Of a stretch of DNA of 64,000 nt, positions 8,409 through 59,456 are shown piece by piece. The first letter of the stretch is position 1. Each line of letters starts with the position of its first letter. The stretch spans positions 16,917 to 80,916 of IMG/VR virus record IMGVR_UViG_3300025070_000024, one strand, 5' to 3'. A program made the position numbers and the translations under genes. Below the pieces are notes generated by a model. It made no database searches. It saw only the letters and a program-made list of their open reading frames with translations, and was not told where the DNA came from. The stretch comes from a virus.

Positions 8409-9205
8409 CGCATTAGACGTTCTTGAGTGTTATTCCCAATAAAGAAATCGGAGTGGGCATTCAGGTTTGGAACCATGCGCACCCACATATTTTTGAAGCT
8501 TTCCATCTTGTCGATACTCGGATATGCTGCATCGTTCTGAGCTTTCAGGCAGTACTCCCCCCACTTCTGATCCGCTGTCTGCCAATTGAACACAGGATGT
8601 GTGTACCCTCCCATTATCATCTGCCTTAGTATGTACCATTCAAGAGCTTGTTTGTAGTAAATGTTGTCAGGTACTTTAGGGTACCCATCATCACATACTG
8701 GATAGGCTGTAAAGTGAATCTTTATATTTCCTTCTTCGAAAGAAGTCTGAATATAATCAGGGTTAATCACATAATAGTCACCACCTCCATAGCTAGACGC
8801 TTTTATTGTTTTCTGCTGCTTGTATGTATTGTTGCCTAGGGGGTGTTCATTTGCTTGAGTTTGGAATACCGCACCTGTAGTAATTTCAGAGGGCGTGTAT
8901 GGCTGAGGATTTGTAGTGCGTTCAGCATTGGGCAGGTCATATCCTGTAACATCAGACCCGTAATGCAGATGGCTCCCGTTATATTCTACCTGGATAATGT
9001 CTACTAGTTCACAAGGCAGGGGAGAGCGGTGGTTGGAAATAGATACCGTACTTGCTTTCTTTTCTAATCCAGCAGAATACCCAATGTATTCTAAGCCCTC
9101 ACCTATCCACTCAACAGCGTCAATAACCCAATTGTCCGTAGTAGGTTTTAAGTCCCGGAATACTTTGGCAATGACTGCCTTCGACGATACGGTTTTGTAA
9201 ATCAT
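8405..9205 (-). CDS. Tail tubular/ring protein
   Basis: 266 aa; WIGEGLEYIG and GYPKVPDNIYYKQALEWY motifs; synteny. Confidence 0.65.
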   Translation of the reverse strand: MIYKTVSSKAVIAKVFRDLKPTTDNWVIDAVEWIGEGLEYIGYSAGLEKKASTVSISNHRSPLPCELVDIIQVEYNGSHLHYGSDVTGYDLPNAERTTNPQPYTPSEITTGAVFQTQANEHPLGNNTYKQQKTIKASSYGGGDYYVINPDYIQTSFEEGNIKIHFTAYPVCDDGYPKVPDNIYYKQALEWYILRQMIMGGYTHPVFNWQTADQKWGEYCLKAQNDAAYPSIDKMESFKNMWVRMVPNLNAHSDFFIGNNTQERLMR

Positions 9206-35497: not shown

Positions 35498-36060
35498 CAG
35501 TCTTCAAACATTCCTTTTTTACCTCCTCCCTTAATCCGAGTATCACTGGCTTGCTCTTTCTTTATTTTCTCTTCTAGGGTCGAGATGTTGTCTATTACCT
35601 TAGGCAGCTTTTCTCCGATTTCTAGCATTCGTTGCACACTACGCACTAATCCGTCTAAGTCCTCAACTTCATCTTGCTTTAGCTCTCTCTCTATACGTAT
35701 ACGCAATGTGTCAATAAGCCTTGAACTGGTCAACAAACCTTCACGGATCGAGGTCAGTGTTTTAATTGTTGGAGTCTGTGCAAATTTGAGATACTTCTCA
35801 ATGGCTGCTTGCACTTTGAGATCTGGGACGTAGTCCTCCGCCAAACCTAAATCTTTACTTACCCGGATCAACCGCTCGTCAGAAGCATAAATAGCATAAG
35901 GGCTTTTGTGGTCGTGCATAAAATAGATGTACGCCAACTCCCGCACACAACCTTGCTTACTTTGACTTCTGTCACGTTTATACAAAGCTTTGAACTCTGG
36001 TATCAGCTGCACTTCGGGGTCAGGAACGACCTTAAACTTTTCTTCTCTTAGTAAGCGCAT
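35497..36060 (-). CDS. Conserved protein upstream of TerL (TerS candidate)
   Basis: 187 aa helical; ELAYIYF..D.KSPY motif; coupled to terL. Confidence 0.5.
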   Translation of the reverse strand: MRLLREEKFKVVPDPEVQLIPEFKALYKRDRSQSKQGCVRELAYIYFMHDHKSPYAIYASDERLIRVSKDLGLAEDYVPDLKVQAAIEKYLKFAQTPTIKTLTSIREGLLTSSRLIDTLRIRIERELKQDEVEDLDGLVRSVQRMLEIGEKLPKVIDNISTLEEKIKKEQASDTRIKGGGKKGMFED

Positions 36061-36265
36061 GATTGAGGTTGTATAAACGCCTAGGTTTCACATAAAACTT
36101 GCCTAAGTATGGCATACGTACTTGAGAAAAGTCTCCCTTCTCCATAGTCTGGCAAAGAAACTTAAACTGGCTCTCTACTATATCCTGAATCTCTACCAGG
36201 CTCCCACCATTCTCCTCTACAATCTCTAAGCAGATTTCTTTTTTTATTTTATTCGTTCTAGCCAT
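36032..36265 (-). CDS. IHF/HU-like protein
   Basis: IVESQF...VRMPYLGKFYVK HU-like pattern. Confidence 0.6.
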   Translation of the reverse strand: MARTNKIKKEICLEIVEENGGSLVEIQDIVESQFKFLCQTMEKGDFSQVRMPYLGKFYVKPRRLYNLNHALTKRRKV

Positions 36266-37868: not shown

Positions 37869-38090
37869 ATGAACATTGAAGCAAGACAAAAACGTGAAGA
37901 GCTATGCTCTACATTACAGCAACAGCATACCACAGCATGGAATGAGTACCACATGTTGGTGCAAGATCTAAAGCAGCACATCCCTTCAGATAAGCAGGAT
38001 GAGGTTATGACTATCGTGAAGCGCATGTGTGATGCACACGGCAAAGTCATGGTAGCTAACCATCGCTACGAGGAAACAATGAAATCTTGA
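37869..38090 (+). CDS. Hypothetical helical protein
   Basis: Likely ATG 37869. Confidence 0.55.
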   Translation: MNIEARQKREELCSTLQQQHTTAWNEYHMLVQDLKQHIPSDKQDEVMTIVKRMCDAHGKVMVANHRYEETMKS

Positions 38091-38698
38091 ACACAACAAG
38101 CAAGACAATGGGTATAGTATACTTAGGGATATTCCTACCACAGAAATCTATTGACCAGCTATTGGTTCCAATAGACACAAACATCAAGCATCCACACATT
38201 ACCATGAAGTACTATGGTACATGGAATCTTGATAGGCTATCTGAAGAAGATCACAGTAAAGTAGGAATACATACTGAGATACATCCTTGGGCTATGATTA
38301 CCTCTAAGGATATTGATGTCCTTATATGTAGAAGGAGTCATGAAGGGATGGGTGATATGCCGCATGTCACTCTGCGGGCGTCTAATGGTGCTTTGCCTGT
38401 GAACTCTAACAAGTACACAGAAGCATACACTAAGATATTCAAGGCTAGGGTATTCGACTCTAGTCCTCTTGGTGATGCTCAATACGAAGCCCTAGACTTC
38501 TTTGCCAAAGAGCATCCAGATGCTAAAATCTTCAAGTATGGTACTATTTCACCCATTGCCGCAAGGTGGGGTGTATATACTAGCGAAGGTGTTAAGTATC
38601 AACTGCCATCTAAAAGACTGCCAGGCCCAGATACAATAAGTATCCACCATCCAGACAACTGGAGGTGTATCGAGCCTGAGTATGATGCATATGACTAA
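38087..38698 (+). CDS. 2H phosphoesterase (cyclic phosphodiesterase-like)
   Basis: Two HxT motifs (PHITM, PHVTL); Y.GIFL start and PVNSN motif resemble tRNA-ligase CPDase domains. Confidence 0.7.
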   Translation: MNTTSKTMGIVYLGIFLPQKSIDQLLVPIDTNIKHPHITMKYYGTWNLDRLSEEDHSKVGIHTEIHPWAMITSKDIDVLICRRSHEGMGDMPHVTLRASNGALPVNSNKYTEAYTKIFKARVFDSSPLGDAQYEALDFFAKEHPDAKIFKYGTISPIAARWGVYTSEGVKYQLPSKRLPGPDTISIHHPDNWRCIEPEYDAYD

Positions 38699-38912
38699 TA
38701 ACATGATTATGAAGAACAACGCTATTCTTACAGCACTAGTCTCTTTTATTACATGTATCTATACATGTACCATTGGACTACTCGTAGGTCTCATCAACTC
38801 TGATGACCTACATCCTGACCCCAACGCAACACTTCTATTGGCTCTCATTGGAGGGCTAATAGTTGTGTGCCTATGGATTGCTTTAGCATCTGCCAACAAC
38901 AAAGAATCTTAA
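38682..38912 (+). CDS. Small two-TM membrane protein
   Basis: Two hydrophobic helices. Confidence 0.55.
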   Translation: MMHMTNNMIMKNNAILTALVSFITCIYTCTIGLLVGLINSDDLHPDPNATLLLALIGGLIVVCLWIALASANNKES

Positions 38913-38914
38913 TC

Positions 38915-39583
38915 ATGTTAATACATCAAGTAATTATCTTACGAGGTCTGCCCGGTGCCGGTAAAACTACCGTGGCTTCTACCTTAGCATTAGCGTCACG
39001 TGGTACAATATGCTCTGCTGACCAATACATGGTTGACAGCAATGGCGAGTACCACTTCGACCCAAAGCGACTGAAAGATTGTCATAACCTCTGCTTCGAT
39101 AAATTCTGCAAAGAGTTAACCAATGCAGTTCAAGACAAGCATTACGACCTTCGTAATCAGGCGTACACTATCATTGTAGATAACACCAACACTCAGTATT
39201 GGGAGTTCCAGAAGTATATCAACAAAGTAGCGAACGTGAATCTTCTGCTGAAAGAACTCGGCTCTAGCGACAAATTCATTGTTACTCAGCTCATCGTCGA
39301 GAATCCATCAGGATTTCAGTCTACACATGATGTTCCTAGTGCTACTATCGCCGCGATGAAAGACCGGTTTGAGGTTTATTTAGGTCCAGACCATCAGCTT
39401 AGTGACTGTCAGGAAGAACAGGTTCAAGAACATCCACCTTACGAAGAAGACGAGTGTGTAGGGTGTGGCAATTTGTATGATGTCAATGACCCACATTGTG
39501 AATGCACTGATCGCGAGGAGCAAGCTCAGGCTATGATGACCGAAGACATGCAAGATTCTATAGACCCTGACTATGATGAATAA
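38915..39583 (+). CDS. P-loop polynucleotide-kinase-like protein (AAA_33 / N4BP2-like) with Cys/acidic tail
   Basis: ILRGLPGAGKTT, SADQY, IVDNTN, HDVP...MKDRFE motifs. Confidence 0.8.
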   Translation: MLIHQVIILRGLPGAGKTTVASTLALASRGTICSADQYMVDSNGEYHFDPKRLKDCHNLCFDKFCKELTNAVQDKHYDLRNQAYTIIVDNTNTQYWEFQKYINKVANVNLLLKELGSSDKFIVTQLIVENPSGFQSTHDVPSATIAAMKDRFEVYLGPDHQLSDCQEEQVQEHPPYEEDECVGCGNLYDVNDPHCECTDREEQAQAMMTEDMQDSIDPDYDE

Positions 39584-39893
39584 GACTCTAACTAAAATGA
39601 GTAGTAGACAGATTCAACACATCTTACGTGATGAGCTTAGGAATCAAAAGCTCAAGCACAGGTCTATGGCATATTTAGCTGACCGGCATCTGTCAGAACT
39701 AAAGAAGTATGCAGCCCTTAAAAACTTTGAGCAAATAGATATTCAATCTCGTTTGCACTCTGAATTTTGCCGAGAGCAACATATATCTAGTGTTGAAATC
39801 ACGCGTTTAGAGAAAGAGCTGAAATATCAGCAACCTGCACCCAACAGAGTTGCTAAGTTTGTGATGAAACTTAAGATGAGGTTTAACCTATAA
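39573..39893 (+). CDS. Hypothetical protein
   Basis: 106 aa, coupled to upstream gene. Confidence 0.55.
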   Translation: MMNKTLTKMSSRQIQHILRDELRNQKLKHRSMAYLADRHLSELKKYAALKNFEQIDIQSRLHSEFCREQHISSVEITRLEKELKYQQPAPNRVAKFVMKLKMRFNL

Positions 39894-40150
39894 CATTGTA
39901 TGATGCCTTGCCTAGGCACCTCAATCTTAAGTAACACGGGGTTTGACTGTGCCTTGTTACCCAATTCAGTTACTATCTAAAAGTCCTACGCTAATCAATC
40001 GTAGGCATTATTTATCAGTCAAGCAATAGTGTACGTGTTACCGCTTGATGTATAGACCACGTACCTGTCCCAGCTTGGACAGCTTAGTCATAGTTAGAGG
40101 GGGTGTAGCTGTTAGTGACGACTACGGTCTCAGTACACCCCTTCCATTTC

Positions 40151-40232
40151 AGCACAGTCAGGTTTGATAAGCATTTCATTTCATCAGAATGGATTACAAA
40201 ATGCTTATGTGGTTCAATTCCACACTGTGCTC
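40151..40232 (+). ncRNA. tRNA-like RNA lacking a D stem
   Basis: Acceptor AGCACAG/CTGTGCT; T arm TGTGG-TTCAATT-CCACA; 9-bp TAAGCATTT/AAATGCTTA stem in the anticodon position. Confidence 0.55.
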
Positions 40233-40261
40233 AATCAACTAAAACATCGAATACACACAAG

Positions 40262-40777
40262 ATGGATATCAGCAAAACAAAGTTCATTAAGAACCTAGTG
40301 TTCAAACAGAGAAGCTACATCGAAGGAGGCAAAGTGTCTTACGGTGACAACCAGAGACACATCAACTATCAAGCTTGGCTTCACCTTCCAAACAAGTACA
40401 AGCTCTCAATTATCACTGGCCCTGTTGGGACAGGACTAAAATCTGTTCCTAACGTCTATGAAATTGGGTTCTTCTCTTCACTTCATGGAGAGATGATTAA
40501 GGCACACAAAGAGGTGTACTGTTTCACCAACAAAGAAGGTGTAGAGAAGGAAGTTATTGACTACGATAGCACTGCTGGCTACTTCACTCTTGAAGGGCTT
40601 GAAGAATACCTCGTAGAGATTAGTGGGCGTCCAACTCGTACCATCGAAATGGAGATCGAAGAGGGTTACCTCTGTTCAGTACATAAGACAGAGTTAGAAT
40701 ACTCTACCAATAGCCAAGTAATGGAACGCGTGTGTCCTAAATGCGAACCTGGACTCTTTAAATCTGAAGCCGAGTAA
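40262..40777 (+). CDS. Hypothetical protein with C-terminal Zn ribbon
   Basis: Likely ATG 40262; CSVH...CPKC. Confidence 0.6.
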   Translation: MDISKTKFIKNLVFKQRSYIEGGKVSYGDNQRHINYQAWLHLPNKYKLSIITGPVGTGLKSVPNVYEIGFFSSLHGEMIKAHKEVYCFTNKEGVEKEVIDYDSTAGYFTLEGLEEYLVEISGRPTRTIEMEIEEGYLCSVHKTELEYSTNSQVMERVCPKCEPGLFKSEAE

Positions 40778-40779
40778 TC

Positions 40780-41244
40780 ATGAAAACTATTAAAGAAGAT
40801 ATCTTTTTAGGATGGACAGCAGGTGAACTAGCTATAACATACAAAAGGGCAGCGCTAGATGGACCAACCATCAAAGCACCTGAGCATACTATCAAACTAC
40901 TACGTAGATGCTACTCAGATACTATTGAGATACGTGAGTCAGCTATATGCATAGGTATATCCCGCGCTAATAGAATACGCTCAGTATTTATAGTAGGGGA
41001 AGGCGGTACAGCCGGATGCGTGATTGACCCTAAGCTAGTATTCAGCAGACTGCTGCTAGAAAACTGCTCTGCCTTTATCTTATCTCACAACCATCCTAGT
41101 GGCAACACAAACCCTAGTATGGCAGATAAGAAATTGACACGTGATTTTCGAGCTTGTGGTAAAGTACTCGACATACCCTTGCTCGACCACATAATAGTCA
41201 CCGACAACTCACACTTCTCGTTTGCTACACACGATATGCTATAA
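40780..41244 (+). CDS. JAB/RadC-family protein
   Basis: E...HNHPSG...PS.AD...LLDHIIV motif. Confidence 0.88.
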   Translation: MKTIKEDIFLGWTAGELAITYKRAALDGPTIKAPEHTIKLLRRCYSDTIEIRESAICIGISRANRIRSVFIVGEGGTAGCVIDPKLVFSRLLLENCSAFILSHNHPSGNTNPSMADKKLTRDFRACGKVLDIPLLDHIIVTDNSHFSFATHDML

Positions 41245-41518
41245 CACTATCATCATGCCGCATCCTAAACTCACTCCGACACTCAAGTCCAAGTATCAAA
41301 ACAAATGGTACAAGGCCTTAGTAGACAAGATCCAAAAGGATCCCAATGTTCCAGATTGCGAAAGAGTTCAACTCAAACAAGGGTATATATTCATTTCTCG
41401 TGCTGTAGAACTTGTATTCGAGCACAGCGCAGAAGCACATGCTCTTCTACTAGAACTAAATGAACAGGAACACCTGGATACAGATCCAGATGCTACTCGT
41501 CTTTTTGATCCGCAATAA
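41222..41518 (+). CDS. Hypothetical protein
   Basis: Open frame; true start probably the internal Met (MPHPK). Confidence 0.5.
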   Translation: MLHTICYNTIIMPHPKLTPTLKSKYQNKWYKALVDKIQKDPNVPDCERVQLKQGYIFISRAVELVFEHSAEAHALLLELNEQEHLDTDPDATRLFDPQ

Positions 41519-58567: not shown

Positions 58568-58653
58568 GGCTGAGTGGTGGAATTGGTAGACACGACAGAC
58601 TTAAAATCTGTTGAGCCGAATGGTTCGTGCGGGTTCGAGTCCCGCCTCAGCTA
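58568..58653 (+). tRNA. tRNA-Leu(TAA)
   Basis: Cloverleaf with long variable arm; ACAGA-CTTAAAA-TCTGT; T arm GCGGG-TTCGAGT-CCCGC; CCA not encoded. Confidence 0.92.
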
Positions 58654-58668
58654 CAAAAACTTGAAACA

Positions 58669-59382: not shown

Positions 59383-59455
59383 GCGCTTGTAGCTCAGTGG
59401 TTAGAGCATCCGACTCATAATCGGCAGGTCGTAGGTTCAAGTCCTACCAGGCGCA
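59383..59455 (+). tRNA. tRNA with CAT anticodon (probably Ile2/lysidine type; Met possible)
   Basis: GCGCTTG/CAGGCGC acceptor; CCGA-CTCATAA-TCGG; GTAGG-TTCAAGT-CCTAC. Confidence 0.88.
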
Positions 59456-59456
59456 C

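Follow-up and report, generated by a model that had tools for sequence, protein, structure and literature searches.

What is a transfer RNA (tRNA)-shaped sequence that keeps no anticodon loop doing between two genes of a phage? The question is raised by positions 40151-40232 of a 64,000-nucleotide (nt) stretch, called the window throughout, which corresponds to positions 16917-80916 of the viral record IMGVR_UViG_3300025070_000024 (80,916 bp, rated 100% complete). The element found there is best described as a conserved, non-decoding, tRNA-shaped RNA module, and it belongs to a family with clear covariation that, in uncultured marine phages, is found at the borders of further conserved structured RNAs. 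As to its role, we tentatively favour a signal for processing by ribonuclease (RNase) P and RNase Z, akin to the t-elements of plant mitochondria, a reading that we regard as quite possible and still short of probable.

The window copy (coordinates in Table 1) has the outer parts of a tRNA in their usual arrangement. Its acceptor stem is perfectly paired over seven positions, and its T arm directly adjoins the acceptor 3' strand with no spacer, so that both features named in the original prediction, which had been made from the letters of the window alone, are present as described. The T-arm motif GGTTCRANYCC is matched by GGTTCAATTCC at 40211-40221 and in relatives by GGTTCGATTCC. The stem and large interior reported in place of an anticodon arm were likewise recovered, and the G3:U70 determinant is missing, as had been stated: position 3:70 is C:G when the acceptor is numbered with seven base pairs and A3:U when it is numbered with six, and in neither case G:U. 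The conserved unit begins at G40152, the base before it (position 1) being variable in relatives. A correction is needed for the segment between acceptor and long arm, which had been taken for an unpaired linker in a D-arm-less molecule; it forms a miniature hairpin with a GG-containing loop that covaries in the family, so the D arm is miniaturised and not missing.

This tRNA-like geometry is not explained by chance. The minimum free energy (MFE) fold of the window element is the shape just described, with -24.8 kcal/mol compared to a mean of -14.06 (standard deviation 3.31) in shuffled sequences (z = -3.24), and a fold as good is attained by only 2 of 200 shuffles. A geometric descriptor (seven Watson-Crick acceptor pairs, a 5-bp T stem, a TTCRANN loop and exact adjacency) gave two matches over the 64-kb window, the element being one, while 200 dinucleotide shuffles produced a mean of 0.005 matches and a single shuffle with any. 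The second match, at 35976-36078 on the minus strand, runs across the junction of two genes within coding sequence and has the loop TTCAAAG; it is AT-rich and probably a chance occurrence, though just 1 of the 200 shuffles gave any match.

Gene finders pass over the element. ARAGORN made no call there at default settings, in line with the original expectation of a pseudogene call or none, and was also silent on 39851-40350 with five of eight option sets; the other three, all with lowered thresholds, returned tRNA-Asp(atc), mtRNA-Asp(atc) and an intron-bearing tRNA-SeC. Rfam 15 reported nothing at the element at gathering score, and relaxing the limit to E up to 10 over the window yielded five weak and irrelevant matches (top score 18 bits), with the tRNA model RF00005 still silent on the element. 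The copies in relatives obtained neither an ARAGORN default call nor an Rfam call at gathering score, their top clan match being tRNA-Sec with 14-17 bits against a gathering score of 47. When a relaxed descriptor and ARAGORN with -ps90 and -ps95 were applied to the whole 80.9-kb genome, only noise, the two real tRNAs and the element itself came up. By the tests applied, the element is not a member of the decoding tRNAs, of transfer-messenger RNA (tmRNA) or of any Rfam 15 family.

The family was collected with an exact pattern of 19-21 nt that covers the T arm and the acceptor 3' strand, which fixes the 3' half of the members found and leaves their 5' strands free. Six matches were obtained in viral contigs, five with the same type of element (the sixth, L008, is atypical), and 39 in metagenome contigs, where 29 carry the element and 10 are unrelated; this makes 34 other viral and marine-metagenome loci, some of which may be identical assemblies. 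Together with the window, the pattern-derived members comprise 21 distinct sequences in about five subtypes that have acceptor stem and T arm in common and very different linkers and long arms. Three further members came from a search independent of the pattern, made with a structural descriptor and two covariance models. One lies at L020:8614-8708 (acceptor ACACAG/CUGUGU, T stem UAUGG/CCAUA). Another, at L002:3589-3646 (= L025:2710-2767), is only 58 nt long, has the acceptor GACACA/UGUGUC and the T stem GAAGG/CCUUC, requires one unpaired C at the T-stem junction and replaces the long arm by a 7-bp hairpin with a GGCA loop. The third is a weak match in L008.

Other patterns were less productive. 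One with a free T stem returned 53 loci, all of them real tRNAs or unrelated except for the already known L005, L006 and L009; the type-4 5' half returned 10 loci and no new member, the type-2 5' half at least 120 loci with no new member among the matches listed, and a pattern for two divergent T arms L007 only. With the covariance models R1 and R2, neither the window nor G000 yielded another copy, and there is one copy each in the genomes G000, G002, G003 and G004. A blastn search ('distant') with window positions 39600-40800 and with L013:2400-2700 found no match among 50,697 phage records. Two side observations concern possible kin. At L008:3600-4020, in a different 39-kb phage with inverted terminal repeats, there is a row of T-arm-like sequences in which both the weak family match (27.7-32.5 bits) and a tRNA match of 30 bits are found; degenerate or non-decoding tRNAs may be arrayed here. 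The loci L050-L099 (viral contigs from sample 3300045988 and others) are tRNA-Met genes of unrelated phages whose acceptor, C-GCACAG ... CUGUGC-A-ACCA, has the same six pairs as the element family with a C:A mismatch at 1:72, which may be a coincidence or a hint of ancestry.

Structural conservation in related phages, which the original prediction had proposed to look for by covariance search, was found. Model R2 served to align 25 matches, which make 24 distinct rows. A pair is present in 98.8% of the paired cells compared to a shuffled mean of 83.3%, and 17 of 26 pairs are altered on both sides compared to a shuffled mean of 8.8, figures that come from an alignment fitted to the structure and from rows representing a handful of lineages. 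None of 500 shuffles attained the observed value on any of five measures, and sliding the 3' partners by 1-3 columns lowers the paired fraction to 24-54%. Compensatory changes are present in all five helices. The acceptor (helix 1) is 99.3% paired; the mini D stem (helix 2) is 100% paired with changes on both sides in both of its pairs; in the long arm (helix 3) this applies to all eight pairs, and in the T stem (helix 5) to three of five, through UAUGG/CCAUA in L020a and GAAGG/CCUUC in L002b.

An independent parse of the 22 sequences of alignment A2, the window included, gave a common architecture: all 22 variants consist of a 6-bp acceptor, a very small hairpin, a long arm with 5-9 closing pairs, the T arm, the acceptor 3' strand and a four-base tail, arranged around a four-way junction with zero unpaired bases. 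A seventh acceptor pair (1:72) forms in 13 variants. Over the whole family the size ranges from 58 to 96 nt. The hairpin at the D position occurs as UCA-GGUU-UGA (window), UCA-UGG-UGA, CUA-UGGU-UAG, CU-UGG-AG and ACUU-UGGU-AAGU, so that a stem of 2-4 bp covaries across subtypes while its loop of 3-4 nt always contains GG; ViennaRNA forms it once the acceptor and T stems are enforced. A regular D arm (3-4 bp, loop of 7-11 nt) and the connector nucleotides 8, 9 and 26 are not present in the family. In tRNA the GG of the D loop docks onto the T loop to build the elbow, and the GG of the miniature loop could dock in the same manner.

No family member retains an anticodon loop, and the element is thus non-decoding, as had been proposed. 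The anticodon arm of a tRNA (5-bp stem, 7-nt loop, U33, a conserved anticodon) has no counterpart: the long arms of relatives measure 18-53 nt with apical loops of 4-13 nt that differ in sequence, even the apical part of the window's arm differs from that of its closest relative, and relatives do not keep the sole 7-nt loop that can be read in the window copy (UCAUCAG), whose position 33 is C. The motif ATTTGG, recurrent in long arms and not present in the window's own copy, showed no consistent partner either, as CCAAAT occurs at 0-1 scattered sites within 500 nt of each of 22 copies.

The four-base tail is UCUA in 15 variants, ACUA in two, UCCA in two and ACCA, UCAA (window) and UCCU in one each, with C at the second place in all 22. 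Its general form, N-C-N-A, matches the 3' flank of real tRNA genes in the same phages, which reads A-C-N-N. In those genes (window, L003, L004, L009, L012 and L018) the encoded CCA is mostly missing and a C is kept right after the discriminator, the letters that follow the discriminator being CUU, CAA, CGA, CUA and CUC, with CCA once.

The element is intergenic and always on the same strand as its neighbours, in the window within a 368-nt gap (39894-40261) flanked by two plus-strand open reading frames (ORFs). By script, 19 of 34 loci have a same-strand ORF that starts no more than 75 nt downstream, and reading by eye added three loci where the script had mis-set the start (the window with 29 nt, L002 and L025). 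The immediate neighbour genes vary from locus to locus and none is common to all; of ten neighbour proteins compared with Pfam and PHROGs, nine had no match, the exception being a DUF1287 protein. On the 5' side of the window copy lie two structured segments, which we call modules A and B. Module B has compensatory changes in 9 of 31 predicted pairs among 10 sequences, matches no Rfam family, and ends in a long hairpin that stops 6 nt before the element. Among 25 distinct upstream contexts of family members, 9 have RNA of this type immediately before the element, and module B is also present without the tRNA-like element in L003 and L010. In L003 and L028 a U run follows its last hairpin, giving it a terminator-like appearance. 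Module A recurs in L020, L004 and L002.

In L020, the closest relative, the order is a tRNA-like element of type 4 at 8614-8708, two bases, module A, module B, a tRNA-like element of type 1 and a gene. Compared to this, the window has lost the first tRNA-like copy by a clean deletion adjoining 39937 (ACAC/GGGG join). L002 shows a tRNA-like element, a gene, module A, a B-like module and the mini tRNA-like element. In contigs of relatives, similarity ends exactly at 39937 and at 40232, and a DNA contig of run X22 joins the 3' end of a tRNA-like element, after 4 nt, to module A. From these joints it appears that the modules behave as shuffled cassettes bordered by the tRNA-like element.

Of the explanations considered, a processing signal seems to fit this placement best, an option that the original prediction had already named. 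The features kept are those read by enzymes acting on tRNA ends (the acceptor/T stack, the T loop, the GG and the 3' flank) while the decoding features are gone, and a position between same-strand genes, immediately 3' of module B and, in L020, flanking A-B at either end, is what would be expected of punctuation. RNase P measures from the T loop and elbow along the stack of T stem and acceptor, the D loop being seemingly dispensable and a T loop or something similar needed, and its non-tRNA substrates include tmRNA and MALAT1 (PMC4919913). The closest parallel is offered by the plant-mitochondrial t-elements, non-canonical tRNA-like cloverleaves with a perfect T arm (GGTTCRANYCC) and acceptor stem that lie beside other genes in polycistronic transcripts; they steer RNase P and RNase Z cuts that generate messenger RNA (mRNA) ends, a role that is proposed and partly shown, and are released with non-templated C or A (PMC1920247). 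The phage element shares with them the non-canonical fold with the T-arm motif and the position at RNA boundaries within a same-strand, presumably single, transcription unit. It differs in that t-elements belong to an organelle and have no sequence relation to it, and in having a miniature D hairpin, a fully paired four-way junction and an arm of 7-20 bp with free sequence. A second parallel is mascRNA, a tRNA-like module directly 3' of the structured non-coding RNA MALAT1, where an RNase P cut at the 5' edge leaves the upstream RNA with its mature 3' end and sets a small tRNA-like RNA free (PMC4919913, PMC8457004); MALAT1 is a eukaryotic nuclear long non-coding RNA of unrelated sequence, and the phage cut is a putative one.

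If the parallel holds, the early plus-strand transcript would include the element; host RNase P would cut at the element's 5' edge (about 40151/40152), and RNase Z or an exonuclease would cut just past the acceptor stem (about 40231-40234). The upstream structured RNA (modules A and B, 39937-40150) would thereby be parted from the downstream mRNA (ATG at 40262), and a small, stable tRNA-like RNA, to which CCA may be added, would be set free as a by-product. Phages would then use the 'tRNA punctuation' known from mitochondria to carve their transcripts without extra decoding tRNAs, the element would mark the start and the end of phage RNAs such as modules A and B, and its 58-96 nt, with tiny D hairpin and fully paired junction, would offer a natural minimal substrate as a scaffold for probing what tRNA-end enzymes need.

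Several observations do not sit well with a processing signal. The acceptor is reliably only 6 bp long, which makes a stack of 11 bp instead of the usual 12. With acceptor and T stems enforced, all 22 variants stay within 0-2.3 kcal/mol of the MFE, yet in 13 of them the MFE fold swaps the T hairpin for another pairing that is better by 1.1-2.3 kcal/mol. Acceptor and T-arm sequences are near-invariant across subtypes with wholly different long arms, which could point to a sequence-specific partner instead of recognition by shape only. A GC hairpin and a U run come after the element in L004, giving this copy the look of a stand-alone RNA gene, and L042, L043 and L049 start with the letters found downstream in L004. 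No copy was found in the records of the relatives G001 (87% complete) and G005 (68% complete), so the element is dispensable. A contig from an RNA library, X24 (163 nt, depth 3.1), spans 39937-40099 only and stops short of the element; as it may be DNA carry-over, as contigs cannot show RNA ends and as 39937 is also a break in DNA contigs, it weighs neither for nor against transcription of the element.

The same conservation could instead reflect an action in trans, and the two roles are not exclusive. An RNA matured like a tRNA, perhaps with a CCA tail, would occupy a host or phage protein that recognises the tRNA's upper half, and would serve as decoy, sponge or cofactor; a tRNA-end-modifying toxin, a nucleotidyltransferase, EF-Tu or an aminoacyl-tRNA synthetase are candidate targets. 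We consider this possible and rather doubtful. Strong conservation of acceptor, T arm and GG mini D hairpin next to a free distal arm would suit it, as would the terminator that follows some copies in the manner of stand-alone RNA genes and the NCCA-like tails of L004 (ACCA), L012 and L020a (both UCCA); 17 of 22 tails, however, carry CUA and not CCA, and the element is missing from some close relatives. A partner might be sought in the P-loop kinase (AAA_33, E 3.5e-10) encoded upstream beside a protein with two HxT motifs, but no gene is common to all loci, and this pair is found upstream in only 5 of 26 loci examined, all of window type. An RNA end-healing pair close by had indeed been predicted: kinase and two-HxT protein are there, while their link to the element does not hold across the family. 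It is unlikely, in our estimation, that a host-trimmed and CCA-tailed miniature tRNA acts in trans as a decoy or sponge for host factors which recognise or attack acceptor end and elbow of tRNA, or is charged for non-ribosomal use, with modules A and B as non-coding RNAs freed by the same cuts; modules and element would in that case form an 'RNA island' organised by tRNA-like punctuation.

Descent from a tRNA may be presumed, and together with the tRNA-Asp(atc) call at lowered ARAGORN thresholds and the element's absence from some relatives this would agree with a decaying, functionless tRNA pseudogene. We regard decay as very unlikely, given compensatory changes in all five helices, a closed four-way junction shared by all 22 variants and a mini D stem that covaries; no relative has a normal tRNA at the homologous place, as simple decay had been expected to leave, and the element is unlike the phage's own tRNA-Met or tRNA-Leu. 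A function as DNA, either as an attP core that copies the 3' half of a host tRNA or as a recombination junction for cassette shuffling, appears very improbable too. It would account for the 23 nt of T arm and acceptor 3' strand that are identical across otherwise different subtypes and for the breaks in contig similarity at 40232 and 39937, although homology can itself give rise to breakpoints at conserved edges. The 19-nt core was found at 4 places in 185,579 species' genomes, no family member or plausible host among them; two are unrelated Lachnospiraceae tRNAs and two lack the complementary upstream 5' strand. The 80.9-kb genome encodes no tyrosine integrase (PF00589), and an attP core has no need of a complementary 5' acceptor strand or covarying helices.

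Least probable of all is a decoy for anticodon nucleases or a mimic of tmRNA directed at SmpB, as had been suggested at first, and the sequence may be said to refute both largely. The tRNA-like domain of tmRNA also combines acceptor and T arm with a reduced D region whose loop contains GG, and a long helix takes the place of its anticodon arm. In the phage element this helix is a closed, loop-capped hairpin without tag frame or pseudoknots, the pair at 3:70 is C:G, ARAGORN makes no tmRNA call and Rfam gives no tmRNA match even at E up to 10. A nuclease decoy should present a conserved 7-nt anticodon-like loop, whereas the apical end of the long arm differs between relatives, both in its letters and in the size of its loop.

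Two further groups of non-decoding RNAs invite comparison. The bacterial Y-RNA-like YrlA has a tRNA-like module and is sometimes found near RNA-repair genes; its free ends are at the anticodon-stem side and its acceptor-like stem is closed, while the phage element has its free ends at the acceptor stem and matched no Rfam family. RNAC and RNAD of phage T4 have tRNA-like ends and, like the element, are small non-decoding RNAs that a phage encodes in connection with tRNA genes; the difference is that they lie inside the T4 tRNA cluster whereas the window element is 18 kb from the real tRNAs. Phage non-coding RNAs are poorly charted, and even these two small RNAs of the T4 tRNA region have no assigned biological role (PMC3014915). 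No description of this element family or of tRNA-like punctuation in phages was found in the literature; the 10,006 candidate viral RNAs from IMG/VR in PMC10690425, 'tRNA-like' ones among them, form a list, available in part, that may include it.

Features of the element and its surroundings are collected in Table 1. The only two real tRNAs in the window (ARAGORN default and Rfam 15 gathering score) are found at 58.6 and 59.4 kb.

Table 1. Positions in the window of the tRNA-like element, its modules and neighbouring features.
Feature	Position	Strand	Description
Acceptor stem, 5' strand	40151-40157	+	AGCACAG; 7/7 Watson-Crick pairs with 40225-40231
Miniature D hairpin	40158-40167	+	10-nt linker TCAGGTTTGA; UCA-GGUU-UGA, 3 bp, GG-containing loop
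Long arm replacing the anticodon arm	40168-40207	+	40 nt; 9-bp closing stem (TAAGCATTT, 40168-40176, pairs with AAATGCTTA, 40199-40207); 22-nt interior
T arm	40208-40224	+	5 bp; TGTGG 40208-40212, loop TTCAATT 40213-40219, CCACA 40220-40224
Acceptor stem, 3' strand	40225-40231	+	CTGTGCT; pairs with 40151-40157
3' tail	40231-40234	+	UCAA (N-C-N-A)
Module A	39937-40017	+	two hairpins
Module B	40018-40150	+	conserved structured RNA; helices 40031-40037/40058-40064 and 40065-40070/40077-40082, long hairpin 40097-40144
Upstream ORF	39573-39893	+	106 amino acids (aa); no Pfam or PHROG match
Downstream ORF	40262-40777	+	171 aa; ATG 29 nt past 40232; no Pfam or PHROG match
P-loop kinase	38867-39583		238 aa; AAA_33 (E 3.5e-10); PHROG 'polynucleotide kinase' (E 1.5e-7)
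Protein with two HxT motifs	38087-38698		203 aa; HIT at residue 37, HVT at residue 93; no Pfam or PHROG match
Real tRNA genes	58568-58654 and 59383-59456		ARAGORN, Rfam 15

The HxT protein together with the kinase agrees with the pair of a 2H protein and a kinase that had been noted earlier; no search aimed at a ligase was made. A scan of 38800-41400 for sigma-70 promoters and terminators remained at the level of shuffled sequence (7 promoter-like sites with 5.6 expected, 2 terminator-like sites with 1.5 expected) and showed no plus-strand site at the element.

Structural genes occupy the minus strand up to about 36 kb of the window, and early and replication genes the plus strand from about 37.3 kb. 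In a tblastn search with the family-A DNA polymerase of the phage, crAss-like gut phages lead at 26% identity among the matches listed (ranked by coverage x identity), none of which reaches 60%. Judging by this polymerase and by where the stretch has been sequenced, the source is an uncultured marine phage that is distantly crAss-like. The sequencing runs containing the stretch are labelled as marine or seawater metagenomes; eight runs from 2017 contain at least half of its sampled words, and six of these eight may be the source samples.

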